A DNA stretch of 64,000 nt from Haplodiscus bocki (Eukaryota), in contig OZ296658.1 of assembly GCA_965655095.1 (NCBI GenBank), forward strand, positions 24,738,001 through 24,802,000, in the 5' to 3' direction. Below the pieces are notes generated by a model, which was not told the DNA's origin, made no database searches, and saw nothing but the letters and a program-made list of their open reading frames with translations. Numbering within the stretch: the first letter of the stretch is position 1; each line of letters begins with the position of its first letter. Both the position numbers and the translations under genes were made by a program. Positions 17,978 to 64,000 of the stretch are shown here, piece after piece.

Positions 17978-18215
17978 CTGCAAACAAAAACAGACCCAGT
18001 TACTTTTTCCGTTTCCCCCTATAATTCTTTAATTCTTTAGGCCAAGTTCTAATTGGAATTGATCTTTACACATGCTCAAGCAAGTGTTACTCCACGGTCT
18101 TCCTTTTCTTTTTTCCGATCCGCTTACAATTTGCATTTGTTCCTAAATTCTAAACTTCCTAGCTTTTATTCATGCGTTCTCGTTTTCTTGCAAAAAATTG
18201 TTCACGTGACGTAAT

Positions 18216-39146: not shown

Positions 39147-42100
39147 AAGCTTGTCATTGATGCGCGGTATCTCAATTCAGTGACCGATCTCATCAACCAC
39201 TCTTGGTCACTAAAACCAGGTCAATTGATTGTGACTAGAATAAATGGCAAAACCGACTTAGTTAGCGATTTGTCTTGGGCCTACCATCAAGTACCTCTGA
39301 GCCCGGAATATCAGAAACTAGCAAGTTTTGTCACTGGTGGACAATAATATACCTACACTCGAGGCCTTTATGAGCTGTGCAGACTTCCTAACTTCTTCAG
39401 CCGACAGATGACGATTCATTTTGACCCTCTTTTCAAGAAGAAGCAAGCCAGTACGCTTTTGACGATGCAAAAATGCAATCGAAAAAAAACGAGATGTTTA
39501 CTATCATAAAGGATAATCACAGTCTCCTTCGCAAGGCTCATCTCAAGGCCAACCCAGGCAAAACGTTCTTTTTCTTAAAGAAAATGAAACTCATTGGCTA
39601 TGTCATCTCTCCAGATCGAATACAGCCCATCGCAAAAACCAGTCAAGGCCTTGAAGAACTTGAAATCTCCCGAATGCAAACGAAATGTGATAAAAGCTGG
39701 GAAAGTCTTGGATTCTTATAGCTGTTATATCAAAAACCTTCATGTCGATAGTCAACCATTCAATGAACTAATTAAAGACTCAACGTCTTTCCACTGGACT
39801 AATGAACACGAAAGGCTTTTCAGTTGATAAAAGTACCATCGGAGACACCATACTTGCTGTCCGTTCCACACTTTATTCCTTCCACATTCTTGTTGACTCT
39901 TTTAAGATTGGTACTGGTTGTATCCTGAATCAAAGTTTTCCCGAAGGAAAACGATTTATCTCCTGCAACTCTCGGGTCTTCGAAGAAGCTAAACAAAACA
40001 TTTCTGCGATTCACTGAGATCTCTGTGGGATTGTGTCAGTAATACAGACCTACGAACACTTATTTTTAGTTCTCCGATTCTGATTTGTCTTCATTCAGGC
40101 CAAAAACTTATTCTGTATTCATCGGGATGCAAAAGACAACTCTTCAACCGGTTCTTCCGTTACCAAGGTGTTATCACGAAACTTTGGAACTTGAAGAAAA
40201 TCTAGACTCCTGGATCTAATCTTGCTTTCTCGATATCCTCAACAAAAATTAAATTTTGGAGGGATAACAGAAGTTTCAGTTACAACAAAAAATTTACCCC
40301 GAGACATTGAATTCTTCGACGAATATGGTAAACCAGTGATATACATCACTCAACACGAAGACAATCCGCATGATACTTGCAATGATTTCTACCCAATACA
40401 TCGCCAACAGGGGAACCATGATAAAACCCTTAGATTACAAACCGAAGGCGAGAGTTACACTTCAAACAAATTCACAAACGATTTTTCAAAATGGTCCATA
40501 CTTTCTGCCGCTGACTGTTCCAGATTGGGAAGAACGATTAATCAATTTCGTCTGCTGTGTCTGCCAATAGCAACAACTCCTATATCTGATGGTAACTCCG
40601 ACTCAATCTAACTCTCCATCAGCGCTTTGGAAGTAGAACACCTCTTCTGATGTGGTTGATTCAACGGAAGATGACGAAGAATATCAGATGTGCGAGATGA
40701 ACACTAGCGCTGCGCAGATCATTATTGGCTGTGCAAAGCAAAAACAGCTCACGACTATTTGTTGGGCAAAATTGATGCCCCTTTAGTCAAAAAAACCACT
40801 CACAGTTACAGACGTTCCTCATTTGGACACAAATGCACTGACAGCTAAACTGGACGAAGTTGCAAAAAATGTAGACCATGACGCTTCGACTATTCTAGCC
40901 GAGCAATTCAAGGACTTTGTTTCCGGCAGTGTACGCTTGTGGATACGCAAACGGATTTCAGCTGATGCAAAATCTCCTGAGATTCAACACTCAAAAAGCC
41001 TCTTGCAGTTTTGTCAAGAATTGGATAGAATCTTCCTGTAAACAGAAGGACCTTTATTCTGCCATAATGCACCCTCGGAGAAACTGGCAGAAAAAAACCT
41101 CAGACTTCTAAATCTTACGCCAATGATAAACGATTTTACTATTGGACTGGCATGTTTGACTGAATTTGCGCTCTCACAGCGGTTTGCATTACTTGTCAAA
41201 ATAACCAGTCCAAACCAAAACACAGAAAAGGAGTTACACTGGAAGAATGACAGAACAACACAATATTTTTCGCACAGTGTACATTGACCATAAAGGACTT
41301 CTCTACCGAGCAACCAATCGCAAACATCATTGCCTGTTAGTTATTGATATGTTTTTAGGTTTCTTATTGTCTACCCGGTAACTAAAACTACTGCCTGAGC
41401 AACGATAGCTGCAAGCAAAAACTGGATCCACTCCTTCGAGATTCTCCAGCCTATTATACACCATCGAGACACTACCGTCATCAATACAGACTTCAGCATC
41501 AGAATAAAACAACTCGGAATTACACTACGACCACGAACAGTTGTTTCCCCATTGACAAATCGCAAGTTAGAGACGCCAAACCAACACATCACTAGATATT
41601 GGCAAAAATTTGTGATTGATGCTGGAACTAACTGGTCTTTCTGGGCACCCAAGTTTGGTTTTGCGTTTAACACGAGTTCAAATTACACAACTGTGAAAAC
41701 GCCCAATGTCAATAAAACTTGGTTTTTACCGCAATAAACACAAACTCTGTTGTTCAAAGTTCTGCAAAGACTTACCTGCATACTCGCTTAGTTAAAATAT
41801 TACGAGAAATCAACTGTTAGACAACCTTCTCCGCCCACAATTTTCAGAAACGCTTTTGGAACGTGAACAAGACTTCAAGCGAAGGTATTCCACTACCTTT
41901 GAAAGACGCCACGAACAAACAGCACGATCACATGCATATCGCAACAGGTTCAAGTTGGGGCATAATTCTGAGATTGGCCAGAAAGTTCTGTATGAAAATA
42001 ATCGCCAGGATCTATCCAAAAGTCAAAAGCTTCAGTAACGACGACTGGGGCCCTTCACAGTAGCTAAACGAATCGCGAACATTACTCACCAACTTCGAGA

Positions 42101-42350
42101 CGATACAGCTTTTACCCTTCTCAAAACAGTACACTGGATTCATTTAGTTGGATAATATCCTAAAGAAGAATCTTTTCCACCAACGATTGAACAAAATGTC
42201 CCTCCAGACAAACACCCCGATGATTAATTTGAATGATTTATGGAACGACGTGTACAAAAAATTAATGACCCAGAAGAATCCACCACAAACGATGCTGTTC
42301 CTTTCCCTACTGCGCCGCTATCTTCAATCCCGACAGTTCTCCCAATAAAA
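39147..42350 (+). pseudogene. Gypsy pol (RT, RNase H, integrase), decayed
   Basis: LVIDARYLN, SDLSWAYHQVPL, FDD, LKANPGKTFF, FHWTNEHE, RNase H ILVDSFKIGTGCIL; integrase RVHID, LLVID, LGITLRPRT..SPLTNRKLE; GPF motif LGPFTV (~42046). Confidence 0.92.
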
Positions 42351-42699
42351 AGATTCAGTTATACTAGCCGGGATTCGGGTGTCAACTCACTGATAAACTC
42401 TTCTCTAACAACGCTATGAGATCCGATCAATCATTCACCTCAGAAAGTACCTTCAGTCCTTCAGCATCACCTAAAAAATTCATCCAATACCACTCAGTCA
42501 ACCACTCACTCCTCTTCAGCAGTTGATTTAGTCTCATTCGGTTCTACTTACTTCAAAACGCCAGGATTATGACCTTTGTCTTTTGATCTGTATTCAATTG
42601 GTTTCCCACCCGATATATTTAACTTGATCACCCTAGCGTTATCATTTTGTTGAGCCTAATCCAATATTATCTATTTTTAACACTTTTTTATTCTAGAAC

Positions 42700-44100
42700 C
42701 TAATACCTAATCGCAAAAATTTATCCTAAATGTATTTGGACTATCCCTCCTGAATGGCATGGTTTGAATTCCTATTGTGGACTGCTCACTTAAGTCTTTT
42801 CGAAATATGGCACTGATTTTGTCCGAATTTGTGTCACTCCGTTCTCACCTACAAAACTCAAACCCGAAATCATGTGCAAATTCAAAATCTAGATTCGCTG
42901 CAACTCCAAGGCTATGGGCAGTATTTTTGAACTTTTCTGCCATCACTCCGTCTTTTGTCCTAATCCTTTGCTCGACTAATTTCTCTCGTATCATCCTACA
43001 TTTTCCCCTTCGTATATGTTTGACTAATGTGTCTCTGAAAGTTCAGATGATGACTCCTATCATTCCGACTCCACGACTCCATTATATCTGCTTTTTACTC
43101 CGATGATTCCAAATTTTTCTAATAGCTTCTCAAAAATAAGGTTTGTGCATTTTCAATATGCCAATACCAAAACGTTGCACAACAACTAAAGCCATACATG
43201 GTGGTATGGGAAAACTCCACACCACAAGAAGACACTCTGGAGATTCACTCGAGCTCCACAAAGCCACCCACGCCGCCAACGCTTTTGTACCGTCTCTGGA
43301 CTCCTCTGTGAACCACACTCCGAAACGCCGAAGGAACTCTCGCCTCTCAAAGGCAGTCGATGTAGTAAACCCAGTAATAGCCGCTGTTATCTTCGCAACT
43401 ATCAACTTTCCCTCGGCCTTTGAAACCAATTGTTGATACCGAGCCCCATTAAAGGCTATTAAAGTCGTTGAAAAACGTTCTGAAACTTGAGACTCGGGCA
43501 TTTAGAAACCCGCTTGATCCGCCTTTCACGGACAAACGCTCGGCAGAGTTGTAGCAAATATGGATCCCTTCTGGTAAAGAGTATGTACGCGGGGTCTCCG
43601 GTATATCCGTCTTCATATCCAAAATCCGCCTCATCAATACAGGCTCGTCTTCCCCAACGGGTTCTTCATCAGCTAGAAGATCATCCGCGGACGGCGGTTC
43701 TACGTATTCTTTGTCGGACGACATTCTCAACTCGAAAGGAACTTCGATCCCCGCTCAAAGAACTTTGTTTTTATTTGCTGGGAAACCGAAGGACGAAATT
43801 GTTGGACTTTCCGGACTTTCACTCACTAGAGAAACAGTATTGCTGATGGACGGGCCAAGTTGATCCCAACAATTAGTTTTGGAAATGATGACTCCTTGGT
43901 CTAATCCATACTTCTTCGAAACATTTGCTTGCTCCAAACTTCCTATTCTCAACGCCTATGATCCCACAAGTGGACCCACCTGCACAGGCTGAATCTAACC
44001 CACCCTCTCTGCACCTTTCCTATCAACGCCTACCCCACCAACATGGCTCCTATTTTTATCCTTTTCCCCTCAGAATGCCCTGCTACGGCAAGCGTAGCGG
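42700..44100 (-). pseudogene. Antisense accessory ORF of unknown function inside the Gypsy element
   Basis: ORFs 43755-43952 and 43449-43730 share one frame (single stop between them); one frameshift leads into 43130-43501, and that frame continues with few stops to ~42700. Confidence 0.5.
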
Positions 44101-44469: not shown

Positions 44470-47400
44470 TCATGAGTAACATCACTTGTGGGAACAGAAA
44501 TTTCATCAAAAACTGACACTCGTTTTCCTCCATATCGACAATCAACTTCACTACATTGTGGGGCTGACGTTCATTACGGGAACGAAACATTTCATGGTGA
44601 CAACCCAATTCAGTTACTCCGATCAAATAAAGATCTTGATTTGCTCAGATGGATCAACTCATTACCCTTTCATTGCAACAATACTATAAACCCTCCACAC
44701 AATCACATCAAAATCCATGACAGAAAGTTTTAAATGACCTTTGTCAAAACATCACTATGACACCTTGGTGACAACAAAAGTGACACGAGTTAATCAAAAG
44801 TGCAAGTGGACACAAATTTCGTTAAAGGGAGAGCACACAATCACAACCATCTTTTGAATTCATGACGGAAACACTCTGCAACTCAGAATCCGGGTTGTTG
44901 AGATTCCACTCGATGTATTACCAATCCCCTTAACTATCCAAAAGAAGAGTTTGCAAACCTTTTTTTGATCCGCAAGGTCTCCAAATCATTGAACAATTGG
45001 GAAAACTTAAACTTGGATAATCTTTTCAATATTATGGACACTAATTTTTGGGCTGATATACGAGGTGTAACTGATCAACATCCCACACGCACCCGTTAAC
45101 TTTCGTGACGTTTGAGCTCATCATCAAGTGTATTTCGCAGCTTACCGCCGCAAACAACCACTTGGAGATCACTAAATTTGAGTAGTTTGACACGAACGAT
45201 CAAATTGTCATAAAGATTGATTGCTTGAGGCAAAGACAAACGGGAAGCTGGAACTTACCAGTTAAACAAATGAGTCAAAAGCCATCAGACCTCCTATCTT
45301 CCCCACGTTATTACACGGCGTCTCAATGTTTCAAAAAAAGTCACTCTCTAACCAAAAATTTCCTTGAGGAGCTTAATCGACATTGCCAACCATTGGCCTT
45401 TGACAGTCAGTGAATCAGTCCAAAACGAGTAAAGCTAGCTCCTAATTCAACTCAATGGTGGAGGTGAGATTTTTCTAAGTTGGCACTTTTCTTTGACGAC
45501 CGTTCATAAGCCGGCGTCCCTTCGAAAAATTGACGCCCTTTTAATAGTAGAGGGACAATGCTATCAAATTAGCTCCCACACTGTGTTAGTGCCTACAAAG
45601 CGCTAGATAAAAAAACAGCATTTTAAATAAACTCTACGCTGAAAAAAGAGAGGACTCCCGTTCCGAAATCCGGTGGAGGAGTTGGCTATTGTTCTTCAAC
45701 TGTTCTTTAAAAAAAAGAGAACAATTTTATTGGTGTATCCGGTGACGAATTTATCTGTTTTTCTTTCGATAGCTAGTCTTCCCGCGGAAATTCAGGAATG
45801 GAACTCCCGTTGAGAGCTCCAGCGATGAATTTGTTGCTTTTTCAAAACCTCGTGCAGGGGATACTTACAATGTAATTCCAGATGCAGACTAGGTTGAATC
45901 TGCCCTTAAAAATTTTTCAAAAGGATTGCAGTGTATTGACATAAAACTATCCTTATGCTATGAACCAAGTACGACCGTATCACATTACACCAAAGCAAAT
46001 AGAAAGCAGTAAAGCCAAAATTAAACTTGACACACTAAACACTTCCAGAAAGAACTATACGCAATCAAATGACAAACCCAGCATCAATGGGGGAAATGGC
46101 ATTTCGGACGTAACAACCAAAGTAGAATTGACCACACTATCCCCGCAAAAACCAGTGATTTAATCATTTCGCCTGAACAATGTCGAACTCTGGTAAACGG
46201 AGCCAACATTAATGTACAAAGTTATTCGGTTAGTGCTGACTGGTATAGCAAAACTCCAGTAGTTAAAGTCTCTGGTGACCTAACAAGCTCTAACAAGAAT
46301 CACTGTGTCACAAAGAGATGGCATTCCTGGGAGAATTTCGTCATCCACATGCGAAAAACAACTCTAAAAGTTACGATGGAAACCGGAAAAGTGTTATCCG
46401 ACACGGGACTAACTTTACCCTGTGCCTTAGAAGAACTTGGTTGTAAATCTACTTCACTTGACGTTTACGTTTACATTTGGGATTTCCCAGATTTTTGTGC
46501 AATCTCGGTTCTCCGGTTCTCCGAACTGAAGATTTTAAAATGATCAATCATCACAGCAAAAACAACGTCTTCAGCGGAATAGACTTTACGTCCAAATTTG
46601 TATTTGAAGTCAAAGATCATCCTCAAAAACATTGTCAGAAGCTTAGAGCTATTCATCCAAAAACTTACGAATCGCTCTTTATGGTTCGATTCAGCGAAGG
46701 CTTCGACATGAACTCGGGGAGAAACCTTGCAAGTGAAAACATGGTGCAACTAAAATCCTTCAGTAATTGGGGCCCCAGGAGAAAAACATGATTTTGGCCC
46801 GTTTCACGCACATAACCCCAAACTAATGTGACCGGGGTATTCGAACTTTAAAGAATTTAACAAATACTTGAACATGGACTACAGAATGCAGCTTGGAAAG
46901 AAATTGACTACCTGTTCTTCCAGAGTTCACCACTCCTTCAGGCAACTGAAATACAACTATTACAAAACCAATGCGAACAGGAACTTACACAGATTCTTAC
47001 TTAGTTAATGCTGGCTCTCACTAGCCCCTGCTTAGCATGCTAGATGCTCACAGGGAACCGATCAATGTTCCTGGAAACAGATGGCAGTCTAGCTTGGTTG
47101 AACCAATGCCCAAAGGTACACTCACTTCTTCACACGATGAACCAATGGTATGACCGAATAGCAATATGGTACCAGGGCGAGATCCAGTTTGTTGATACGG
47201 TTACATGACAAAATTATCCTGATGCCAATGCCAGGAAATGCTCTGATCAAATTAAAAGCCTCTTCCAGCTCGACATAGATTGGAAAGACTCGTGGTATGC
47301 ATTTACGGCTAGCATAGTGCATCATCATTACGCCGCCATTTACCCCAAAAGTGACGCCAGTGGATGGAAATTCACTCAAGAGATCTCAAGATGCAGGAAT

Positions 47401-47967
47401 GTACACCCAAAGTGAACTCCATGGCTTTTTGGGATAGCATCCACCTAAATGCAGCATCCAAGACAGCTCTAAATAATTTTCGGAGCACCTTTTTTTTCTG
47501 TCCCTGAAAAAAGATCTGATGGACTCCGTCATTATGCACCGCGGGCCGAGTTTTTTGTTGACAAAATGATATCCCCTGATCACTTCCAGAATAGCTTCAT
47601 GGACACATTTGGCCCTGTTGCTTACGTTGTTGAAGATCATGGGATTTCTTTTTCGGTTTTTCTATTCCTTAAAATTATCGTTGATCTTATAGAACTTGGA
47701 AATTAACAACATGACAGGTGCTTCACTCCGATTCGGTAAGACCGTCCAAAGCGCTTCGTACAATATATTTATGACGTCTGGTCCAACTTTGTTGTTTGAT
47801 CCTTGCGGGCCTCCCATAGCCGCTTTGAAAAAAAGAAGGTTGATCATTCTAAAGATGTAAAGCTCTACGAGATGAGAGAGGTTGCGAGGAAGAAGGGAGA
47901 GCACCTTTATGCAGCACTCAGCCAAGGAGTTTTGAACTCCAAAACTCTCCCCTTGTCACCTGTCTAA
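44470..47967 (+). pseudogene. Envelope glycoprotein, chuvirus G / herpes gB-like (class III fusogen), decayed
   Basis: Cys/Trp pattern LAFD(C)...ISPEQCR...NHC...LPCALEELGC.....YIWD.PD.C...HC....TYESLF...QCEQE..QIL...QCPKV....YDRI....FVD.VT....C....F.LD....WY; C-terminal TM (FSVFLFLKIIVDL, ~47650-47690) and tail ending SPV*. Confidence 0.75.
45413..45930. mobile_element. Unrelated ~520-bp insertion interrupting env
   Basis: env reading breaks after HCQPLAFD and resumes at ~45945; CAGTG flanks both sides (45408-45412 and 45929-45933), a possible TSD. Confidence 0.4.
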
Positions 47968-48602
47968 CGTTTTCATATATCTAAGTTCTATTTATTTTAG
48001 TCCATTGATATTCATTCTATTCCCCTCGTGGACAGCAGTGAAACTCCTTCTATTTCTGGAGACCCGACTTGGAGTTGCAACCATTCACCCTTCCTTCAAT
48101 TTTGGATCGGTGTACAACTCCGAGGCTGAATTTTCAGATCCTTTGAACCATGACGAACAATTAAACACTCTTACAGTGATGATAAGGGATTCACAATACG
48201 AGTTTTGTGCGCATGATATCCTTTTTAACAACTCGCCGCCATTTCTGCTAATCAACTTCGAATCAGAAGAAGAACGCAGACAGTCAACTCCTTCTTTTCC
48301 TGATACCAGCATAAGGGACTTTAGTTCACGCCTTTCCCGTTTCAAATATTCTAACTCAAGCCACCAAGCCGATAGATCAGCACTTTGTCGTCAACACCCC
48401 CGTTAACGCTTTGCGTCCCCAGCCCGAGTAGTCAAGAAACCTTGATTCAATTGTCTTTACGCAGCAAGTACAAACTTGCAATTTCCTCGTGGGCGATCAA
48501 TTTCAGGGATAGCAACCGACACAAATTTACCCTAGGAAGTGTTTTGTTATCCTCTCAGAGAATTGTGGGTCCATTGAAAGCAATCACAGCTCAATAGTAT
48601 TA

Positions 48603-49890
48603 ATGACAATGAACCCTTTGGCTCCTACCTTCTGCCACCAGGAACACCCGAAAGCGTAATCTAAAAATAGACCACACACTTCTGGGCAAATGTGTCTCTC
48701 CGACCCTAGTATCCCCTGCAACAGCAGCTGAACCTTCTTTTTCTCCGAAACTGCATATCTTTGGTTGAAAAAAGAAATACAATTGTTATGCGCCCGGATG
48801 AACAAGCTACGACTCTATTCGGAGTCTTCACTCCAACAAACTTATTCATTACTACGAAAGTTTCCTTTAGGTCACCTTAAACAATTGCAGTACCTTGACG
48901 CCGTACAGCTGACGGTAGCCCAAGTTCAGCAGGACCTTGAATCTGAAAGACTACAGCGACATGCTTCACAGCTTTTACACTTTGAACCTCAGAAAGACAC
49001 CTTCTTCCGACAGAATATCTTGGTGAAGCAGTCTGCCGGCCTCAAGTGGAAGCCACATTCTCTTCACCCACCGAGTAGAGGTGCTGCGACGAGCCCCTAA
49101 GTACTTGAATGCCTTCAATGTCCAAAAAAGCCTGCCTCTCGACGCTTCCTATTGGGCAATCCTGATGGTTGTACGTCATCTGCATCGCCATCGTTTTTTG
49201 CTAGCTTAAAGTTTTCTTCAAATCCAATGATATCCTCATCAAAATCGCCTACTGATATACAATGTAGAGTTGACGCGCTGGAAAAACTTCTCAATGATGA
49301 TACTTCACGTACCAGAGCCTTGGTTGCAAGCCTACCAGGCGATTATTCCTCTGTGTGACAAAATTCGCTTATTGGAACCTAGCAAATTCAAAAAAATTGC
49401 CTGCTGAAGACCTTCTGTCAAGTTTGTTTTCATTTTGACAATGTGAGCTCACCATTCCTCTAAACCTATAGATGACAAACCTTGGGGCTACTGGAATACC
49501 ATGTTTCGCACTGACTTTTCTGCTTTTGTCTTCATTACCCGGTTTTACTCTAATGGTCTCGATACTGCAACAGGACAGTCTAAGACGATCTACTTTGTAT
49601 TTTTTTTCGAAGACTTTGACGGTTTTTTTGCGTTGACCTTCTTCAAAAGTCTTTCATCTTGGACACCGAGACCAACAGGACTCATTGAACACGTGGATTC
49701 AAAGGGTACAGCCTACCCGAGAACCTCCCTCCAGACGACCAACGCCGTTACTCAAGGATGGAGCTTTCGCTGTCGTCTTTCACAAATTCATCTGCTATTC
49801 TGAGCTTTTTAATGAAACTGAAGGCTATGTTGTAAATGATGCGTGTTATTTGGAAATTTCTTTCTCTGGAACCCTCACAACAATAATCAC
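48603..49890 (+). pseudogene. TRAF-like protein (coiled coil + MATH/TRAF-C domain) carried by the Gypsy element
   Basis: Coiled-coil-like segments (LKKEIQLLCARMNKL; VAQVQQDLESERLQR; RVDALEKLL), then FRT....FITRFYSNGLDTATG..TI.FVFF.EDFDG.LR*PSSK..HLG.RDQ...RRPT...F..FI.YSELF....GYVVNDACYLEI, matching the TRAF MATH consensus GYxxxxRxYxNG.G...S.F......D.LLxWPF.......L.DQ...F.RP....G...F......YVxDD.xFI. Confidence 0.8.
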
Positions 49891-51124
49891 GCTTCTATGT
49901 TTCATCCTCTTCTTTAGAACCCCCAAATCATTTTTCCTGTCTTTTCAGTGGGCTCAGTTATCGCGGTACGACTACAACTTGAACCTTATTAAAAGTGACG
50001 AATCCTAAATTAAAATTAACGAAGAGTTAAAACTAACCTCATCATCGAAATTAGTCAAATCAATTTAGGACTTAGCTGTGAAAACTTCATCATCGAAAAT
50101 ATTCTAAGTTAAATCCTGACTTAGCTGCAAAAATTTTTTCCTTAAAACTAATCTCAATCAAATTTTGAATTAGCCGCAGAATCCTCATCATCGAATTCAT
50201 TCTCACTCAAATTATATGTCAGCTGCAAAAACTTCATCCGCGAAAATACTCAAGGTCAATTCTTAACTCAGCCGCAAAATCCTCTTCATCAAAACTATTG
50301 TAAATCAAACTATGACTTAGCCGAAGAGTTTTCATCATTGAATTTATTCTGAACCAAATTCTGACTCAGCCGCAAAAACTTCATTATCGAAATTCTTTAA
50401 AGCCAGATTATGACTCAGCCGAAAAAACCTCATCATCTGAGCTTAATCTAATTCAAATTCTGACATGGCCGCAAAATCCTCTTCATCAAAATTATTCCCA
50501 ATCAAATTATGACAGAGCCGTAGAACCCTCATCAACGACTTTTTTTCAATCAATGTATGACCCAGCTACAAACACAAAGTCGTCGAATCTATTCAAAATC
50601 AAATCCAAACACAGCCGCAAATTCCTCTTCATCAAAACTATTGTAAATCAAACTATGACTTAGCCGAAGAGTTTTCATCATTGAATTTATTCTCAGTCAA
50701 TTTATGACTCGGCTGCTGAAACTTCATTATCGAAAAAATTGTGAGTCAAATCTTGAGTTAGCCGCAGAATCCTCTTCATCAAAGCTATTCTAATTCAAAT
50801 TATGACTTAGCCACAGACTCTTCATCATCAAAATTAATCAAATCAATTTAGGACTTTGCTTTGAAAATGTCATCATCGAAATTATTCTAAGTTAAATCCT
50901 GTATTAGCCGCGAAATCTTTTTCATTGAAACTATTCTAAATCTAATCATGACTTGGCGGCAGAATCCTTATCATCGAATTTATTCTCTGCCAAATTTTTA
51001 CTCAGCCGCAACATCGTCAGCTCCCTAATTTTTCTATATCACAAAAGGCCTGAGTCGCAAAATCCTCAACATCCAAATTATGGGAAATTGAATTATGACT
51101 TAGCTGCAAAAACCTCATCATCTA

Positions 51125-52285
51125 CTACAATACTTCTGGTTATGTCTTCATTACCCGGTTTCACTCTAATGGTCTCGATACTGCAACAGGAGAGTCTAAG
51201 ACGATCTTCTTTGTATTTTTCTCTGAAGACTGTGACGGTTTTTTGCGTTGACCTTCTTCAAAAGTCATTCATCTTGGACACCGAGACCAACAGGACTCAC
51301 TGAACACGTGGATTCCAAGGGCACAGCCTACCCGAGAACCTCCCTCCAGACGACCAACGCCGTTACTCAAGAATGGAGCTTTCGCTGTCGTCTTTCACAA
51401 ATTCATCTGCTATTCTGAGCTTTTTAATGAAACTGAAGGCTATGTTGTAAATGATACGTGTTATTTGGAATTTTCTTTCTCTGGAACCCTCACAACAATC
51501 ATCACGCTTCTATGTTTCATCCTTTTCTTTAGAACCCCCAAATCGATTTTCCTGTCTTTTCAGTGGGCTCAGTTATTGCGGTACGACTACAGCTTGAGCC
51601 TTTTTAAAAGTGAAGAATCCTGAACTAATTTTAACGAAGAGTTAAAACTAACCTCGGGTGGATTTGGCGCGAAATAAAGAGGCCAAGAATTTACCAACCT
51701 TAGATAAACACTAAAACTAAACGGTGCAGTTTGTTTATTTGAAAATTAAACTGAATCTACGAGCTACTAAATGTTACGATGGAACTAAAGTTGACTCACC
51801 AAGCTGACGTTTTGAAAGCTTTTACGATAAATATTCGCAGATAAATGGAGAACTCTGGCAAACTAGGATGAAGCGAAGTTACAAAACCATGGATTTGGGA
51901 CTATTAGACGACAAAGTTGAATAAAATAATTGTGACTAAAATTGTTTTGGCCACTACGGCCACTTGATGACATTTGCGGATAACTCGATTGGAGTTGAAC
52001 AAATTGATGACGACTACCACTATAAAGAAAAGCTAATACTTCGATTTTGCCTACATTCTACCATCAGTTTTTCTGCTAGCAGGTCTGACTTGCCTGACTT
52101 GCATTGTTTTTCGTTTGGTTGAAAGAAAATCAAGCAAGATGCCATTTTAGAGTCATTTGGCACGGCTGAAGAAGTCATAAATTCTATCATTCGCTCTCAG
52201 TCAAAAGCTAGCTCCCTTTTTTCCGCTCCTCTCTTGTCTTCTTAACTTCTGGACTTACTCGTCCCATCTTGTTCTTTTCACTATT
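51125..52285 (+). mobile_element. Duplicated MATH-domain segment plus longer 3' LTR portion embedded in the satellite
   Basis: 51135-51655 is near-identical to 49520-50040; it continues into ~630 bp of non-satellite LTR-like sequence (TATAAAG at 52021); inferred LTR start ~51574. Confidence 0.85.
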
Positions 52286-55199
52286 CGAAATTAATCTAAG
52301 TGAGAACTTGCCTTAGCTGCAAAATCTTCATTTTCTAGTTTATTCTAAGTCAAAATATAATGAATTCGCCGCAGAATCCTCTCCCTTGAAATTGTTTGAC
52401 TTAGCTGCAAAAACTTCATCATCGAAATATTTCGACGTCACATCCTGACTCAGCCGCAAAACACTCTTCGTCGAAACTATTCTTAATGAAGTTATGACTT
52501 AGCCGCAAAAATATCATCATCGGAAATATTCAAAGTCAACTTATGACTTAACTGCAAAATCTTCATCCTCGAATAAATTGCCAGTCGAATCCTAACTTAG
52601 TTGCAAAAACATCATCCCTTAAATCATTCTTTATCAAATTATTACTGAGCCTCAAAATTGTCAGCAACCTAAACATTCCACGTCAAAATATGCCTCAGCC
52701 GCAAAATCCTCATCATCAAAATTTTTCCAAATCGAGTTATGACTTAGCTCCAAAAACCCCAACATCTAAATTATTCTAAGTCAAATCCTGACTTAGTCAC
52801 AAATTCCTTTTCATCAGAACTATTATAAATCGAAATATGACTCAGCCGCAGAATCCTCATCATTGAGTTTATTCACAGTCACTTCATGACTCAGCTGCAA
52901 GAACTTCATTATCGAATATATTCTAATTCAAGTCTTCACTTAGCCGCAAAATACTCTTCATCAAAAGTAGTCGAGATCAAAATTCGACTCAGGAGCAGAA
53001 AATTCATCTTCAAAATTATTGTAAGTCAAATTCTGACTTAGCCGCAAAACTTTCGTCTCAATCAATTTAAGGCAAATTCTGACTCAGTCCCAAAAGCCTC
53101 TTCATTGAAACTATTTTAAATTAAACTATGACTTAGCCGCAGAAAACTCATGATCGAATTTGTTCTCAGTAAAGTTTTGACGCGGCTGCTAAAACTTCAA
53201 TATCAAAAAAAATGTGACTCAAATCTTGACTTACCTGCAAAATTTTCTCCACCAAACCATTCCAAAACAAATTGTGACTTAGTCACTGAGTCCTCATCAT
53301 CGAAAGTATTCTAAATCAGACCAAGTCTCAGCCGCAAAAACTATATCATCTAAAATAATTCAAGTCAATTCCTAACTCAGCCGCAAAATCCTCTTCATCA
53401 AAACTCTTCTGAATCTAATCATAACTTGGTCGCAGAGTCCCCATCATCGGATTTATTCTCTGCCAAATTTTTACTCAGCCGCAACATCGTCAGCTTCCTA
53501 ATTTTTCTATATCACAATATGCCTGAGTCGCAAAATCCTCAACATCCAAATTTATGCAAATTGAATTATGACTTAGCTGCAAAAACCTCATCATCTAAAT
53601 TAATCTATGTCAAACACTGACTGAGCCACGAAATATAATCACCAAAACTAATCTAAATCAACATAAGACTTAGCCGCAGAAACTTCATCTTCGATTTTAT
53701 TCTCAGTCAACTTATGGTTCAGCTGCAAAAACTTCATCAACGAATACATTCTAAGTCAAATCTTCACCTAGCCGCTAAATCCTCTTGATCAAAATTATTC
53801 CAAATCAAATTTGACTTAGGAGCTGAATCATCATCTTCGAAAATGTTGTAAATCAAACTATGATTTAGCTGCAAAAGTTTCATCATCAGAATATTTCTAA
53901 GTCAAATCCTGACTTAGCCGCAAAATCCTCTTCATCTAAATTAATCTAAACCAAAGTCTGACTCAGCTGCAAAATCCTCATCATCAAAATTTTTCCAAAT
54001 CGAGTTATGACTTAGCTCCAAAAACCCAACATCTAATTTAATCTGAGTCAATTTTTTTTAGTCACAAACTCCTTTTCATCAGAACTATTCTAAATCATAT
54101 TATGACTCAGCCGCAGAATCTTCATCAACGAATTTATTCACAGTCACTTTATGACTCAGCTGCAAGAACTTCATAATCGAATATATTTTAATTCAAGTCT
54201 TCACTTAGCCGCAAAATACTCTTCATCAAAGTATTCGAGATCAAAATTTAACTTAGGAGCAGAATATTCATCTTCGAAATTTTTGTAAGTCAAACTGTGA
54301 CTTAGCTGCAAAAGTTTCATCATCAAAATTATTCTCAGTCAAATTCTGACTTAGCCGCAAAACATTCTTCATCTCAATTAACCTAAGTCAAATTCTGACT
54401 CAGCCTCAAAAACCTCTTCATCAAAACTATTGTAAATCAAACTATGACTTAGCCGCAGAAATCTCATCATCGAATTTTTTTCGCAGTAATTTTTTGATGC
54501 GGCTGCTAAAATTTCATTATCGAGAATATTGTGACTCAAATCTTCTCTTTTTCTCCACCAGAACCATTCCAAAACAAATTTTGACTTAGTCGCAGAGTCT
54601 TCATCATCGAAATTATTCTAAATCGAACCAAGTCTCAGCCGCAAAAATTATATCGTCCAAATTAATCTACGTCAAAACTTGACTTAGCCGCAAAATCTTC
54701 CTCATCAAAACTATTCTGAATCAAATTATGACTTAGCCGCAGATTCCTCATCATCGAAATTAGTCAAATCAATTTAGGACTTAGCTGTGAAAACTTCATC
54801 ATCGAAAATATTCTAAGTTAAATCCTGACTTAGCCGCAAATTTTTTTTTGCTTAAAACTAATCTCAATCAAATTTTGAATTAGCCGCAGAATCCTCATCA
54901 TCGAATTTATTCTCACTCAAATTTTAAGTCAGCTGCAAAATCTTCATCCGCGAAAATACTCAATGTCAATTCCTAACTCAGCCGCAAAATCCTCTTCATC
55001 AAAACTATTCTAAATCGAATCATGACTTGGCCGCAGAATCCTTATCGTCGAATTTATTCTCTACCAAATTTTTACTCAGCCGCAACATCGTCAGCTTCCT
55101 AATTTTTCTATATCACAAAAGGCCTGAGTCGCAAAATCCTCAACATCCAAATTATGGGAAATTGAATTATGACTTAGCTGCAAAAACCTCATCATCTAC

Positions 55200-55729
55200 T
55201 ACAATACTTCTGGTTATGTCTTCATTACCCGGTATTACTCTAATGGTCTCGATACTGCAACAGGACAGTCTAAGGCGATCTTCTTTGTATTTTTCTCTGA
55301 AGACTATCACGGTTTTTTGCGTTGACCTTCTTCAAAAGTCATTCATCTTGGACACCGAGACCAACAGGACTCACTGAACACGTGGATTCCAAGGGCACAG
55401 CCTACCCGAGAACCTCCCTCCAGACGACCAACGCCGTTACTCAAGAATGGAGCTTTCGCTGTCGTCTTTCACAAATTCATCTGCTATTCTGAGCTTTTTA
55501 ATGAAACTGAAGGCTATGTTGTAAATGATACGTGTTATTTGGAATTTTCTTTCTCTGGAACCCTCACAACAATCATCACGCTTCTATGTTTCATCCTTTT
55601 CTTTAGAACCCCCAAATCAATTCTCCTGTCTTTTCAGTGGGCTCAGTTATCGCGGTACGACTACAGCTTGAACCTTATTAAAAGTGAAGAAGCCTAAATT
55701 AAAATTAACGAAGAGTTAAAACTAACCTC
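55200..55729 (+). mobile_element. Third copy of the MATH-domain/LTR-start segment embedded in the satellite
   Basis: Near-identical to 51125-51655; shares its left junction with copy 2 and its right junction with copy 1. Confidence 0.9.
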
Positions 55730-58700
55730 ATCATCGAAATTAGTCAAATCAATTTAGGACTTAGCTGTGAAAACTTCATCATCGAACACATTCTAAGTCG
55801 AATCTTCACTTAGCCGCAAAATCCTCTTCCTCTAAAGTAATCTAAATAAAATCTAACCGAAATATGACATAGCCACAACATCCTCATCATCGAAATTATT
55901 ATAAATCATAATATGAACTAGCTGCAAAAACTTCTTCAACGAAATTTTTCTAAACCAAGTTATGACTTTGCCGCAGAATCCTCATTATCGACTTTGTTAT
56001 ATGTCAATTTATGACTCAGCTGCAACAACCTCATCATCGAAATTATTCGAAACTAAATCCCAACTCAGCCGCAAATCCTCTTCATCAAAACTATTCTAAA
56101 TCAAACTACGGCCTAAGTGCAGAATCCTCATCATCGAACCTAATCTCAGTCATTTCTTGACTCCACTGCAAAACCTTCATTATCGAATTTATCCTAAGTC
56201 AAACCTTGACTTGCCCGCAAAATTGTCTTCATCAAAACTATTGTAAATCAAATTATGACTTAGCTGCAGACTCCTCCTCATCGAAGTTAATCTCAGTCAA
56301 TTTATGACTCAGCTGCAAAATCTTCATCATTGAAATTAGTCTTAGTCAATTCGTAACTTTGCCGCAGAACCCTAATCATCGAAATTATTCCGAGTCAAAT
56401 AATGATTCAGCTGCAAAAACATTATCATCTACATAGTTCTCTGTCAAATCCTGACTTAGTTGCAAGACACTCTTCATCAAAACTATTCAATATCAATTTA
56501 TGAATTAGTCGCAGAACTCTCATCATCGAATTTGTTCTCAGTCAATTTATGAATCGGCTGCTAAAACTTCATTTTCGAAAATATTGTGAGTCAAATCTTG
56601 CCTTAGCTGCAAAATCTTCTCCACCAAAACTAATCGAAAACAAATTGTGACTTAGTCGCAGAGTCCTCATCATCGAAATTGTTTCAAATCAAACTATGTC
56701 TCAGCCGCAAAAACTATATCATCTAAATCAATATAAATCAAACCTTGACTTAGCCGCAAAAGTTTCATCATCAGAATTTTTCTAAGTCAAATCCTGACTA
56801 AGCCGCAAAAACTTCTTCATCAAAACAATTCTAAATCAAATTATGACTTAGCTGCAAACCCTCTTCATCAATGTTTTTCTTAATCAATTTATGACTTAGC
56901 CTCAGAATGCTCATCATCGAATGTCTTCTCACTCAATTTATGACTCAGCTGCAAAAACTTCATTATCGAAATTATCGTAATTCAAATCTCGACTTAGCCA
57001 CAAAATCCTATCCATCAAAGCTGTTCCAAAATAAATTGTGACTCAGCCGCAGAGTAATCAATATCGAAACAACTCTCAGTCAAACAATGACTCAGACGCT
57101 AAAACATTATCAACTAAATTAATCCAAATCAAACCTTTACTTAATCGCAAAATCTTCTGCATCAAACTCAATTCATATGACTGAGCCGCAGACTCCTCAG
57201 CATCGAATTTAATCTCAGTCAATTTAGTGCTCAGCTGCAAAATCTTCGTCATCGAATTTAGTCCCAGTCAAATCCCAACTGAGCCGCAAAATCCTCATCA
57301 TCGAATTTAGTCTTAACCACATCAAAAAATGAGTCAGCCGCAAAAACTTCATCATCAAAGTTTTATCTAATTCAAATTCTGATATGGCCAAAAATCCTCT
57401 TCATCAAAACTATTCCTCATCAAATTAGGACTTAGCCGCAGAATCCTCATCATGGAGTTTTTTCTCAGTCAAATATGACCCAGCCGCAGCTGCAAAAACA
57501 TCATCATCGAAGTTATTCGAAACCAAATCCCAACTCAGCTGCAAAATCCTCATCAACAAAACTATTCTAAATCCAATTACGGCTTAGTTGCATCCTCATC
57601 ATCGAACATAATCTCAGTCACTTTAGAAATCAACTGCAAAATCTTCATTACCGAATTTATTCTAAGTCAAATCCCAACTCAGCCGCAAAATCCTCATCAT
57701 TGAAGTTATTCAAAACCAAATTATGACTCAGCCCCAAAAATTTCATCATCTAGTTGACTTTATCATCTAGCCGATGTTTGACTTAGCTGCCGAATACTCA
57801 TCATCGAGTTTATTCTCAGTCAAAATATGACTCAGCTGCAAAATCCTCAACGTCCAAAATATTCCAGATGAAAGTTTTACTTAGCTGTAAAAACTTCATC
57901 ATCGAAATTACTCTAGATCACACTTTGATTCAGCTGCAAATTTTCATCATCGAACTTATTCTATGTCGAATCGTAACTTAGCCGCAAAATCCTCTTTTTC
58001 CAAATCGTTTTACATCAATATATGCCTCAGCCGCAAAAACATCAGCATCTAAAATTATATCTGTTAAGTCAGAACTCAGCTGCAAAATCCTAATCGTCGA
58101 ATTTATTCCAAATCAAATTCTGACTTAGCTGCAAAAACTTCATCATCGAAATTATTCAAAATCAATTTATGACTCAACCGCAAAATTCTAATCATCTAAA
58201 TGATTCTAGGTCAAACTCTGACTTAGCAGCAGAATCTTCTTCATCAAAATCATTCTAAATCACTTTGTGACTCAGACGCAAAATCGTCTTCATCTAAATT
58301 ATTCTACGTCAGATTAAGACTCCGCCGCAAAATCCTAATCAACGAATTTTTTCCAAATCAAATTATGATTTATCAGCAAAAACATTATCATCAAAAATAA
58401 TCTGAGTCAAATCCTGACTTGGCTGATAAATCGTCTTCATCTAAATTATTCTACGTCAGATTAAGACTCCGCCGCAAAATCCTAATCAACGAATTTTTTC
58501 CAAATCAAATTATGACTTATCAGCAAAAACATTATCATCAAAAATAATCTGAGTCAAATCCTGACTTGGCTGATAAATCGTCTTCATCTAAATTATTCTA
58601 CGTCAGATTAAGACTCCGCCGCAAAATCCTAATCAACGAATTTTTTCCAAATCAAATTATGATTTTTCAGCAAAAACATTATCATCTAAAATAATCTGAG

Positions 58701-61700
58701 TCAAATCCTGACTTGGCTGCAAAATCGTCTTCATCTAAGTTATTCTATGTCAAATTACGACTCAGCCGCAAAAACTGCATCAACGAAGTTTTATCTAATT
58801 CAATTTCTGATATGGCCGCAAAATCTTCTTCATCAAAACTATTCCACATCAACTTAGGACTTAGCCGCAGAATCCTCATCATCGAGTTTTTTCTCAGTCA
58901 AATATGACCCAGCTGCAGCTGCAAAAACATCATCATCGAAACTATTCGAAACCAAATCCCAACTCAGCTGCAAAATCATCTTCATCAAAACTCTTCTAAA
59001 TCAAATTACGTCTTAGTTGCAGCATCCTCATCATCGAACATAATCTCGGTCATATTATGACTCAACTGCAAAATCTTCAATATCGAATTTATTCTAAGTC
59101 AAGTCCAAACTTAGCCGAAAAATCTTCATCATTGAATTTATTCAAAGCCAAAAAATGACTCAGCCCCAAAAGTTTCATCATCTAGTTGACTTTATCATCT
59201 AGCCAATGTTTGACTTAGCTGCCGAATCCTCATCATCGAGTTTAGTCTCAGTCTAGTTATGACTCAACCGACAAATCCTCATCATCCAAATTATTCCAAA
59301 TGAAAATATTACATACCTGCAAAAACTTCATCATCGAAATTATTCTAAATCACACTTTGACTTTGCTGCAGATTTACATCATCGAACTTATTCTATGTCA
59401 AATCCTAACTTAGCCGCAAAATCCTCATTTTCCAAATCGTTTTACATCAATATATGCCTCAGCCGGAAAAACATCAGCATCTAAAATTATATCTGTTAAG
59501 TCAGAACTCAGCTGCAAAATCCCAATCGTCGAATATATTCCAAATCAAATTCTGACTTAGCTGCAAAAACTTCATCATCGAAACTATTCAAAATCAATTT
59601 ATGACTCAACCGCAAAATTCTAATCATCTAAATGAATCTAGGTCAAACTCTGACTTGGCAGCAGAATCTTCTTCATCAAAATCATTCTAAATCACTTTGT
59701 GACTCAGACGCAAAATCGTCTTCATCTAAATTATTCTACATCAGATTAAGACTCCGCCGCAAAATCCTAATCAACGAATTTTTTCAAATCAAATTATGAC
59801 TTATCAGCAAAAACATTATCATCAAAAATAATCTGAGTCAAATCCTGACTTGGCTGATAAATCGTCTTCATCTAAATTATTCTACGTCAGATTAAGACTC
59901 CGCCGCAAAATCCTAATCAACGAATTTTTTCCAAATCAAATTATGATTTTTCAAGCAAAAACATTATCATCTAAAATAATCTGAGTCAAATCCTGACTTG
60001 GCTGCAAAATCGTCTTCATCTAAGTTATTCTATGTCAAATTACGACTCAGCCGCAAAAACTGCATCAACAAAGTTTTATCTAATTCAATTTCTGATATGG
60101 CCGCAAAATCTTCTTCATCAAAACTATTCCACATCAAATTAGGACTTAGCCGCAGAATCCTCATCATCGAGTTTTTTCTCAGTCAAATATGACCCAGCTG
60201 CAGCTGCAAAAACATCATCATCGAAACTATTCGAAACCAAATCCCAACTCAGTTGCAAAATCATCTTCATCAAAACTCTTCTAAATCAAATTACGTCTTA
60301 GTTGCAGCATCCTCATCAACGAACATAATCTCGGTCATATTATGACTCAACTGCAAAATCTTCATTATCGAATTTATTCTAAGTCAAATCCCAACTTAGC
60401 CGCAAAATCCTCATCATCGAATTTAGTCTAAACCAAATCAAACTATTAGTCAGCCGCAAAAACATCATCATCGAAAATTTTCGGAGTCAAACATTACAGC
60501 AGCCGCAAAATCCTCTACATCAAAACTATTCTGAATCAAATTACGACATAGCCGCAGAATCCTCATCTTTCAAGTAATCCCAAGACAAAATATGACTTAG
60601 CTGCAAAAAACATCATCATCAAAAAATTTCTCAGTCAAATCCTGACTTAGTCGCAAAACAATCTCCATCAAAACTATTCTATATCAAATTATGAATTAGC
60701 CGCAGAATCCTCATAATCGATTTTATTCTCAGTCTAGTTATGACTCAACCGACAAATCCTCATCTTCCGAATTATTCCAAATGAAAATATTACATACCTG
60801 CAAAAACTTCATCATCGAAATTATTCTAAATCACACTTTGACTTTGCTGCAGATTTACATCATCGAACTTATTCTACGTCAAATCCTAACTCAGCTGCAA
60901 AATGCTAATCGTCGAATATATTCCAAATCAAATTCTGACTAAGCTGCAAAATCTTCATCATCGAAACTATTCAAAATCAATTTATGACTCAATCGCAAAA
61001 TTTTAATCATCTAAATGAATCTAGGTCAAACCCTGACTTGGCAGCAGAATCTTCTTCATCAAAATCATTCTAAATCACTTTGTGACTCAGACGCAAAATC
61101 GTCTTCGTCTAAATTATTCTACGTCAGATTAAGACTCCGCCGCAAAATCCTAATCAATGAATTTTTTCCATATCAAATTATGATTTATCAGCAAAAACAT
61201 TATCATCTAAAATAATCTGAGTCAAATCCTGACTTGGCTGCAAAATCGTCTTCATCTAAGTTATTCTATGTCAAATTACGACTCAGCCGCAAAAACTACA
61301 TCAACAAAGTTTTATCTAATTCAATTTCTGATATGGCCGCAAAATCTTCTTCATCAAAACTATTCCACATCAACTTAGGACTTAGCCGCAGAATCCTCAT
61401 CATCGAGTTTTTTCTCAGTCAAATATGACCCAGCTGCAGCTGCAAAAACATCATCATCGAAACTATTCGAAACCAAATCCCAACTCAGCTGCAAAATCCT
61501 CATCATTGAAATTATTCAAAACCAAAATATGACTCAGCCGCAAAAATTTCATCATCTAGCTGACTTCATCATCTAGCTAATGTTTCACTTAGCTGCCGAA
61601 TCCTCTTCATCGAGTTTATTCTCAGTCAAGTTATGACTCAACCGACAAATCCTCATCATCCAACTTATTCCAAATGAAAAAATTACATACCTGCAAAAAC

Positions 61701-64000
61701 TTCATCGTCGAAATTATTCTAAATAACACTTTGACTTTGCTGCAGATTTACATCGTCGAACTTATTCTATGTCAAATCCTAACTTAGCCGCAAAATCTTC
61801 ATTTTCCAAATCGTTTTACATCAATATATGCCTCAGCCGCAAAACATCAGCATCTAAAATTATATCTGTCAAGTCAGAACTCAGCTGCAAAATCCTCATA
61901 ATCGAATATATTCCGAATCAAATTCTGACTTAGCTGCAAAAACTTCGTCATCGAAGTTAATCTAAATCAATTTTTGACTCAACCACAAAATTCTAATCAT
62001 CTAAATGAATCTAGGTCAAATTCTGACTTGGCAGCAGAATCTTCTTCATCAAATTTAATCTAAATCAAATTGTGACTCAGCTGCAAAATCGTCTTCATCT
62101 AAGTTCTTCTATGTCAACTTACGACTCAGCCGAAAAATCCTCATCATGGAAATTATTCCGAATGAATATATGAGTTGGTTGCAAAAACATTGTCATCTAA
62201 ATTAATCTAAGTCAAATCCTGACTTATCTGCAAAATCCTCTTCAACAAAACTACTTTAAATCAAATTATGCCTCAGCCGCAAAAACGTCAGCATCTAAAT
62301 TATTCTCTGTCAAGTCAGGACTTAGCTGAAAATCCTCATAGTCGAATTTAACCCAAATCAAATTATGACTTATCTGCAAAAACTTCATCATCGAAATTAT
62401 TCTGAATCAAGTTATGACTGAGCGGAAAAATTCTCCTCATTTAAAAGAATATAGGTCAAATTCTGACATAGCAGCAGAAACTTCTCCATCAAAATCATTC
62501 CAAATCACATTGTGACTCAGACGCAAAATCGTCTTCATCTAAATTATTCTAGTCAGGTTAAGCCTCAGCCGCAAAAGCCTAATCAACGAATTTTTTCCAA
62601 ATCAAATTATGATTTATCAGCAAAAACATTATCATCTAAAAAAATCTGAGTCAAATCCAGACTTGGCTGCGAAATCCTCTTCATCAAAGGTTTTCTAAAT
62701 GAAATTTTGACTTAGCCGCAAATCTTCATCATCGAATTTAATCTCAGTCAGTTTATGACTCAGTTGTAAAATCTTCATTATCGAATTTATTCTCAGTCAA
62801 ATTCTAATTTAGCCGCAAAATCCTCTTCATCAAAGCTATTCCAAACCAAATTTTGACTTAGCCGCAGAATCTTCATCAACGAATTTATTCTTGGTCAAAT
62901 ATTGACTTAGCTGCAAAACCTTCTTCATCAAGACTATTCCAAATCAGAACACGACATAGCACCAGAAGCCTCACCTTCGAAATTATTCAAAGTCAGTTTA
63001 CGACTGAGCTGTAAAAACGTCATAATCAAAGAAACTCTCTGTCAAATCCTAACTTAGTCAAAAAACCTTTTTCGTCAAAACGTTTCAAAATCAAAACATG
63101 AATTGGCACCAGAATCCACATCTTCGAATTTATTCCAAGTCAAATTGTGACAAATCTGCAAAACACCATCATCAGAATAATTCTCAGTCAAATCCTGACT
63201 GATTCGCGAAACCTTCTACATCAAAACTATTCCATATCAAATTATGAATTAGCCGCAGAATCATCGTCAAAGACTTTATTCTCAGTCAAATTAAGACTTA
63301 GCTGGAAAATCCTCCACGTCCAAGTTGTTCCAAATGAAATTTTCACTTAGCTGTAAAAACTTCATCATCGAGATTACTCTAGATCACACTTTGAATTAGC
63401 TGCAAATTTTCAGCATCGAACTTATTCTATGTCGAATCCTAACTTAGCCGCAAAATCCTCATTTTCGAAATCCTTCTAAGACAAATAATACCTCAGCCGC
63501 AAAAACGTCAGCATCTAAATTATTCCCTGTCAAGACAGGACTCAGCTGCAAAATACTCGTCGTCGAATAAATTTAAATCAAATTATGACTCAGCTGCAAA
63601 AACTTGATCATCGAAATTAATTTGAATCAAGTTAAGACTGAGTTGAAAAATTCTCCTCATTTAAATGATTATAGGTCAAATTCTGACTTAGCAGCAGAAT
63701 CCTCTTCATCAAAATTATTCTAAATACCTTTGTGATTCAGACGCGAAATCGTCTTCATCTAATTTATTCTATATCAATTTACGAGGCAGCCGTGAATTTC
63801 TCATCATCGAATTTAATTTGAGTCAATTTCTTACTCAGCTGCAAAATCTTCATCATCGAATTTAGTCTAAGTCATTTCCTAACTTAGCCACAAAATACTC
63901 ATCATTGCATTTATTCTGAACCAAATTTTGACTCAGCCGCAAAAACTTCATCATCGAAACTCTTTAAAGCCAGATTATGACTCAGCCGATAAAACCTCAT

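Follow-up and report, generated by a model that had tools for sequence, protein, structure and literature searches.

A RING-less TRAF-like gene carried as selected cargo by env-bearing Gypsy elements of Haplodiscus bocki

The DNA analysed here (the window) is a stretch of 64,000 nucleotides from Haplodiscus bocki (contig OZ296658.1, positions 24,738,001 to 24,802,000 of the forward strand). In it lies a dead element of an env-bearing Gypsy lineage, truncated on its 5' side, with a broken gene for a TRAF-like protein just before the 3' LTR. The features recognised are the following, with positions counted from the first letter of the window:

39147..42582, + strand: pol remnant, broken (RT, RNase H, integrase); tblastn and blastn with open natural relatives
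43271..43865, - strand: antisense ORF, broken (210-240 aa in relatives; no known family); homology at E 5e-28
45863..47967, + strand: env, broken (Monjiviricetes_fusion family in relatives); homology with open relatives
47968..48000, + strand: predicted splice acceptor, a pyrimidine tract with terminal AG right behind the env stop; sequence pattern
48001..48603, + strand: ORF-X, broken (about 157-227 aa in relatives); homology at E 9e-17
48603..49917, + strand: TRAF-like gene, RING-less, broken, with PAM2-like start (decayed here), helical region, linker, coiled coil and MATH; homology with open relatives
49959..50036, + strand: 3' LTR start with the terminal motif of young relatives; motif and homology
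50037..64000, + strand: satellite, an expanded LTR-internal 49-bp repeat that extends past the window end; repeat comparison
51134..51655, + strand: copy 2, local duplicate of TRAF 3' end and LTR start; 94% identity, single frame with one stop
55208..56075, + strand: copy 3, local duplicate of TRAF 3' end and LTR start; homology

In tblastn and blastn searches with open relatives, homology to the element begins at 39147, and no gag, protease or 5' LTR was found. Homology to env stops at 47964, followed by the stop codon at 47965-47967, while the TRAF-like gene opens with an ATG at 48603 and the start motif of the 3' LTR lies at 49959. An earlier note, made from the letters of this DNA, had placed a TRAF-like gene between the env stop and the 3' LTR, and this placement was confirmed; the gene does lie downstream of env, with ORF-X standing between the two. 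The end of the gene, put at 49890, had to be moved, as the homologous gene extends to about 49917. By tblastn, residues 1-423 of an open natural relative align across three frames of 48603-49870, far above chance level (E 2e-50 to 3e-41). The window gene has at least six in-frame stops and at least two frameshifts, and the translations of the window alone (three frames, X at stops) gave only a weak Pfam MATH match (MATH_2, E 0.058).

The TRAF-derived parts of copies 2 and 3 (51138-51482 and 55212-55559) sit inside the 49-bp array and are local duplications, not separate elements. Copy 2 reads in one frame with a single stop, as first described, and the third copy is added here. Compared with copy 1, the two differ by six non-synonymous changes and one synonymous change over 234 bases, a ratio that looks as expected for neutral decay. 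The window env is only 71-74% identical in DNA to its nearest env relatives, which indicates that the window element is an old relic. In a 56-row tree, in which long branches were flagged, the window TRAF copy groups within family A (see below) with support of 100/99. No end motif of the window element's LTR was found, the satellite continuing past the window: a young LTR has 4.8 copies of the 49-bp repeat, which here has expanded from the 3' LTR of this element into a satellite of at least 33 kb that reaches at least G000:C11 24,820,700. Next to the truncation point of the element, at 37990-38818, are fragments of ORFs that match a tyrosine recombinase weakly (E 0.0095). Elsewhere in the window there is an exon of a neurotransmitter-gated ion channel (17235-17999, - strand; PF02932, E 3e-15) and, near 18.2-18.4 kb, an assembly gap of N; Rfam gave no match between 38 and 56 kb.

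Relatives of the window element are env-bearing Gypsy elements of 19-22 kb with the order gag, pol, antisense ORF, env, ORF-X, TRAF and 3' LTR, and were assigned to four families (A, B, D and E). For family A, a DNA search of the 1.5-Gb assembly returned at least 42 matches, and an open TRAF frame of 436-440 aa was present in 9 of the 27 loci examined outside the window. Family B was found with a protein 41% identical and provided 96 full-length matches (the best 96 of 4,696 candidates), 81 of them stop-free. The TRAF of family E has about 460 aa and that of family D about 250 aa, the latter consisting of coiled coil and MATH only. Distinct copies number at least 27 + 96 + 30, that is, more than 150. 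The complete layout was seen in 9 of 10 extended loci of a first set (one of the nine carries an internal deletion, and the tenth locus is decayed), in 6/6 of family B and in further loci of families A, D and E. No antisense ORF was detected in the extended loci of family D, and no pol or LTR within the 19 kb examined at loci L049 and L050.

The proteins of these elements are separate, with gag of about 460 aa, pol of about 1,850 aa and, after pol, env of 720-735 aa, for which PF24664 was matched at E 4e-36 and 5e-33 on two open relatives. In the Pol of an open relative, Pfam places protease at residues 37-127, RT at 665-787, RNase H at 850-981 and integrase at 1306-1471, the order of Ty3/gypsy. 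The Pol of one relative (L117:1265-6826) also has a macrodomain between protease and RT (PF01661, E 1e-4, barely above cut-off). Values of dN/dS were 0.10 for env, 0.17 for gag, 0.22 for the antisense ORF (8 family A copies) and 0.25 for ORF-X; neither of the last two matched a Pfam family or gave a usable ESM Atlas match. By eye, ORF-X resembles a transactivator, being acidic at its start and having a basic stretch.

The LTRs are 2-3.8 kb long, and within a pair they are 97.1-99.9% identical (longest match per pair). Both ends were located in 20 of 21 extended elements and a perfect 4-bp target duplication was found in 16 of 21, with a primer-binding site recognised in the set. Among the five without a perfect duplication, three have one of four letters alike, one has three of four, and one lacks a primer-site match; of the three with a single like letter, two look tandem or extended, and in one the 5' LTR end probably lies outside the stretch examined. 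No polypurine tract was found before the 3' LTR, the interval between TRAF stop and LTR being pyrimidine-rich, by eye, in the four families and at window 49918-49958. In families A and E, the LTRs start with TA, not TG.

To what extent the TRAF gene belongs to these elements was assessed by anchoring on env. With the window env DNA, 29/29 loci (the best 29 of 39 non-self matches) had ORF-X and TRAF downstream, and with the family D env, 30/30 (the best 30 of 143 matches), a count that covers the nearest env lineages. In 59/59 of these loci the TRAF gene lies 0.5-0.9 kb 3' of env, in line with the expectation that other copies of this Gypsy family carry the ORF. That it lies inside paired LTRs holds for the relatives in the genome, where it is found between env and the 3' LTR, and does not hold for the window element itself, which has no 5' LTR. 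That missing LTR, taken alone, might suggest that a host TRAF retrocopy landed by chance beside a Gypsy remnant. The fixed distance in all anchored loci refutes this, and the trees of RT and TRAF from 13 elements agree in the family order (D,(B,(E,A))), the support being weak in the RT tree; such an accident has practically no probability left.

The encoded protein has the C-terminal fold of a TRAF. Open copies match Pfam TRAF-mep_MATH at E about 1e-18 and TRAF4, 5, 1 and 2 of the PDB at E 1e-12 to 1e-10, which bears out the coiled coil and TRAF MATH domain read from the letters. Likewise as read before, Pfam scans of four long element proteins and of the family D protein gave no RING or zinc finger family. 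An AlphaFold model of the last 214 residues (coiled coil and MATH; pLDDT 88) has a helix of 42 residues and a MATH sandwich, and Foldseek returned TRAF5/2/1/4 as its top matches at E about 1e-12. The full-length model, built with 14 sequences, reached pLDDT 39.9 and was left out of the claims on fold. As for the receptor-peptide groove, whose canonical positions we take to be a serine triad and a Ser-Gly-Cys strand, alignment to Xenopus TRAF2 and an Acropora TRAF3-like protein showed that these residues are not kept in the element TRAFs, in which they differ between families, nor in the host RING-less TRAF genes.

Purifying selection, which had been anticipated, was found across copies: the pN/pS of MATH was 0.14 in family A (9 copies), 0.15 in B (29 copies) and 0.11 in D (25 open of 30 env-anchored copies), with upper 95% bounds of at most 0.23. 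This is close to the values for env and gag, and the linker has 0.36-0.49. These values are pairwise counts over natural open copies only, whereby nonsense changes are removed and the contrast between regions is unaffected. In the MATH of family B, changes shared between copies had a pN/pS of 0.08-0.10 and private changes 0.47-0.60; the far stronger constraint on shared changes implies that selection acts during multiplication of the element. Three outcomes had been named beforehand as speaking against the reading, namely lack of a MATH match, absence of the ORF from other copies and lack of purifying selection, and the opposite was observed for each. The TRAF gene is therefore a fixed, selected cargo in four families, all of them recently active.

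Another account of the same conservation is that the copies are kept for the benefit of the host, as a domesticated TRAF expansion, or that the frame is kept for RNA-level or overlapping-frame reasons. The frame is indeed open in 81 of the best 96 family B matches and in 25 of 30 env-anchored family D loci, and a frame of 226 codons overlaps MATH in some family A copies. However, open frames are expected in young insertions, whose LTRs are 97-99.9% alike, private changes are much nearer to neutral than shared ones, and the three copies of the window have diverged mostly at non-synonymous sites. The 226-codon frame was considered as a gene and rejected, its dN/dS of 2.0 being the shadow of the real frame. 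We regard this account as very unlikely, and retention as cargo of the element is preferred.

The origin of the cargo was sought among host genes. In searches with divergent homologues, the top loci were two apparently RING-less host TRAF genes at C5:50.4 Mb and C5:9.06 Mb, with no gag, pol, env or LTR within 25 kb and no RING exon found upstream in the stretches examined. Both carry a GT-AG intron late in MATH that the element TRAFs lack, and the capture likely proceeded through a spliced host mRNA. A RING-less protein of Convolutriloba macropyga (LOC142342694, XP_075250303.1) is 48-51% identical to these two genes, and the host has in addition a separate multi-exon TRAF with RING and zinc finger on C8. 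The 56-row tree (long branches flagged) separates element, RING-less host and virus-like TRAFs from 24 canonical TRAFs with support of 95/95. With 25 tree rows, joining the elements to the RING-bearing C8 gene was rejected (p-AU 0.001), a single capture was not (p-AU 0.31), and placements of the elements nested in or sister to the host clade were not distinguished (p-AU 0.39). An N-terminal helix common to families A and B and the two C5 genes (36-42% identity, E 3e-12 to 8e-9; no match to three canonical TRAFs) supports the link between element and host outside MATH. As the nearest host TRAFs are themselves RING-less, the RING was likely absent before capture, and the suggestion that the element had created a decoy by RING loss was not sustained.

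A departure from the host proteins is found at the N-terminus. The pattern XXLXXXAXXFXP, published for PAM2 motifs (as given in PMC6486636), occupies residues 1-12 in 54 of 71 long homologues and occurs in 0/119 canonical TRAFs and 0/18 host or other RING-less TRAFs. This start is present in families A, B and E and absent from family D (0/30). The pN/pS of codons 1-12 was 0.07 and 0.01, against 0.71 and 0.22 for codons 13-50. With Pfam PAM2 (PF07145), three of seven N-terminal peptides matched at 14-17.7 bits, below the cut-off of 20, and four gave no match; in a low-confidence model, residues 1-52 have no secondary structure. As a possible partner, the host genome has an MLLE-HECT gene of UBR5 type, of which half of one MLLE, next to HECT, was found in one exon (L263).

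Such a motif raises the possibility that the protein serves the RNA of the element. A trimer would then show three PAM2-like motifs and bring poly(A)-binding protein to the RNAs or particles of the element, or divert it from decay and stress-granule factors, with MATH as a trimer scaffold only. This is consistent with codons 1-12 being the most constrained stretch measured, with their exact fit to the published pattern and with the loss of the canonical groove residues. It accords poorly with family D, whose coiled coil and MATH are under selection without the motif, with the Pfam PAM2 score below cut-off and with purifying selection on the entire MATH domain within families. We judge a role in RNA service unlikely and favour the reading as a signalling protein.

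How the gene may be expressed is suggested by its surroundings. A pyrimidine tract with AG follows the env stop in 5/5 sequences inspected (one copy each of A, B, E and D, and the window), and ORF-X begins in phase behind that AG, its frame in families A, B and E having no start codon. In 9/9 open copies of family A and 29/29 of family B, the TRAF ATG shares bases with the stop of ORF-X; in 7/7 copies of family D, that stop lies two bases upstream of the ATG. Stop-start overlaps permit termination-reinitiation in some RNA viruses. From these signals we infer a subgenomic RNA spliced to the acceptor after env, from which TRAF would be translated by stop-start coupling behind ORF-X. Four sequencing runs of unspecified kind from one study had no GT-AG joint among the joints listed and are uninformative on expression. 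A TGA that recurs in family D matches was considered as a read-through codon and rejected; it is a normal stop.

TRAF as Gypsy cargo, which the earlier note did not know of as standard, has a precedent. The giant planarian LTR retrotransposons Burro/GYPSM1, which are gypsy-like (Jurka 2007 and Grohme 2018, both by way of PMC6431247), are likewise elements of Gypsy type, with env homology and MATH_TRAF_C, and in Dugesia tigrina TRAF is described as a separate accessory ORF (PMC6431247). For their cargo, interference with host apoptosis and ubiquitination has been put forward as a proposal (PMC6431247). By that description, however, Burro exceeds 30 kb and encodes a polyprotein of 4,900-5,100 aa; its env stands between gag and pol, there are BIR, BCL2-like, ankyrin and dUTPase domains, and TRAF is placed upstream of or within the polyprotein (PMC6431247), whereas the present elements have separate gag, pol and env, a Monjiviricetes-type env after pol and TRAF as the last gene; BIR, BCL2-like, ankyrin and dUTPase domains were not found in their proteins by Pfam. 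The present TRAF is also set apart by its grouping with acoel-type RING-less host genes and its PAM2-like start, a distinction drawn from the description of Burro, and the two captures were probably independent. The architecture is new here, and the mechanism is a proposal.

Association with host TRAFs was addressed by structure prediction. A mixed trimer of one element chain and two chains of P0287, a host-type protein of another species that is 74% identical to a gene in the present genome, scored 0.65 against 0.06 for the best control, on a scale whose mark 51 of 78 solved pairs reached, as did 2 of 108 mismatched ones. The runs share at least 93% of contacts, and the partner has a pLDDT of at least 80. 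A mixed trimer of element TRAF and host-type RING-less TRAF is accordingly what the modelling predicts, although the pass may reflect only likeness to solved TRAF trimers, and it does not tell apart which family member binds.

Taken together, the best explanation, to which we lean with modest confidence, is a selected RING-less TRAF cargo, likely derived from a spliced host mRNA and predicted to join host TRAF trimers, likely blunting or redirecting death and stress signalling through TNF receptors and TRAFs. A spliced mRNA of a RING-less host TRAF would have been captured by a Gypsy lineage and become fixed in it; the protein, read from the spliced subgenomic RNA, would enter mixed trimers with host RING-less TRAF; in families A, B and E, the PAM2-like motif would link the trimer to the MLLE domain of poly(A)-binding protein or of the UBR5 ligase; and the mixed trimers would blunt or redirect signalling in cells with element expression. 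The host genome contains a TNFR cysteine-rich exon (L202). The TLR/NF-kB pathway, named before as the target, was not upheld: judging by the Convolutriloba relative, the host is likely an acoel, a group that the main text of PMC12849515 reports as lacking TLR, MyD88 and NF-kB. Since NF-kB is reportedly missing, it is probably not the target pathway, and JNK or caspase signalling would be likelier. An RHD search of the genome had no match anywhere, controls included, and is uninformative on NF-kB.

The opposite effect must be weighed, namely that the protein activates signalling and thereby favours the death of cells, the release of particles or the multiplication of carrier stem cells. There is a viral precedent in ISKNV ORF111L, an iridoviral TRAF described as binding TRADD and inducing caspase-8 apoptosis, hence promoting rather than blocking death (PMC3352826). 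Like the present protein, it is a TRAF-like accessory protein from a host; it belongs to a large DNA virus and its activity was demonstrated (PMC3352826), whereas the present TRAF is known from sequence and models. Absence of a RING need not mean inhibition either, for the host relatives, which several species have kept, possess no RING themselves. On the other hand, a heritable element would presumably gain little from the death of its carrier cells, and suppression of death fits better both with Burro, where MATH is combined with BIR and BCL2-like domains (PMC6431247), and with an IAP near TRAFs on a virus-like contig. Activation is thus quite unlikely in our estimate, and blunting or redirection of signalling remains preferred.

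The contig in question (L189:9986-16590, JGI) is gene-dense and intronless, with three MATH genes, an IAP (BIR and RING), a protein kinase, Hsp70 and a MAM-domain gene, and it looks like part of a large DNA virus. One of its TRAFs, near the IAP gene, groups with the acoel-type RING-less clade. In a more speculative extension, which we consider improbable as a whole, PAM2 and the captured RING-less TRAF would form a new adaptor made of host parts that enters host TRAF trimers and hands them over to a protein with MLLE, either UBR5 ligase or poly(A)-binding protein, in the manner of a lentiviral accessory protein of Vif/Vpr type. The gene would then point to the hub of an acoel antiviral pathway that works independently of NF-kB, an idea based on the apparent capture of the same TRAF clade by a large DNA virus. 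Proteins that are probably similar element cargo in another species were also noted (P0295-P0298 of ENA; RING-less TRAF of 325 aa, 104-member cluster, best match in the present genome 42%); viral contigs had no relative of P0297.

Among other known systems, the env-carrying Ty3/gypsy errantiviruses, with env of HSV/gB type or chuvirus-like, have in common with the present elements gag, pol, env, paired LTRs, a primer-binding site and many near-identical young copies, as described in PMC13524379; the present elements differ by three extra selected ORFs, the Pol macrodomain and their LTR length. The main text of that survey mentions no TRAF, MATH, macro or acoel, and its supplements could list such elements (PMC13524379). 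Bdelloid LTR retrotransposons are alike in having captured non-env ORFs (ORF3) after pol, but their cargo is described as a GDSL esterase or DEDDy exonuclease and not a signalling adaptor (PMC5408684). The acoel host genes, such as C. macropyga LOC142342694, share coiled coil and MATH without RING and belong to the same clade; they have introns and lie outside elements, whereas the element proteins, 26-35% identical, are intronless and mostly have the PAM2-like start that host proteins lack. A literature search of incomplete coverage, with Repbase outside it, turned up no paper that treats this lineage or reports a fusion of PAM2 and TRAF.

The elements form a Gypsy lineage, in an invertebrate, that resembles a complex retrovirus in its build and has a captured signalling adaptor under selection in four old, recently active families. 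Seen next to planarian Burro and the viral TRAFs, it suggests that genetic parasites have captured TRAF repeatedly. In acoels, reportedly without Toll/NF-kB signalling and with undescribed defence, the gene points to the host RING-less TRAF pair as a candidate hub. TRAF counts in such genomes are inflated by element copies, here more than 150. Family D TRAF also occurs outside LTRs, in five tandem units of 2.8 kb (L141-L145, G000:C10:65.79-65.81 Mb), each composed of an env end, ORF-X and TRAF.
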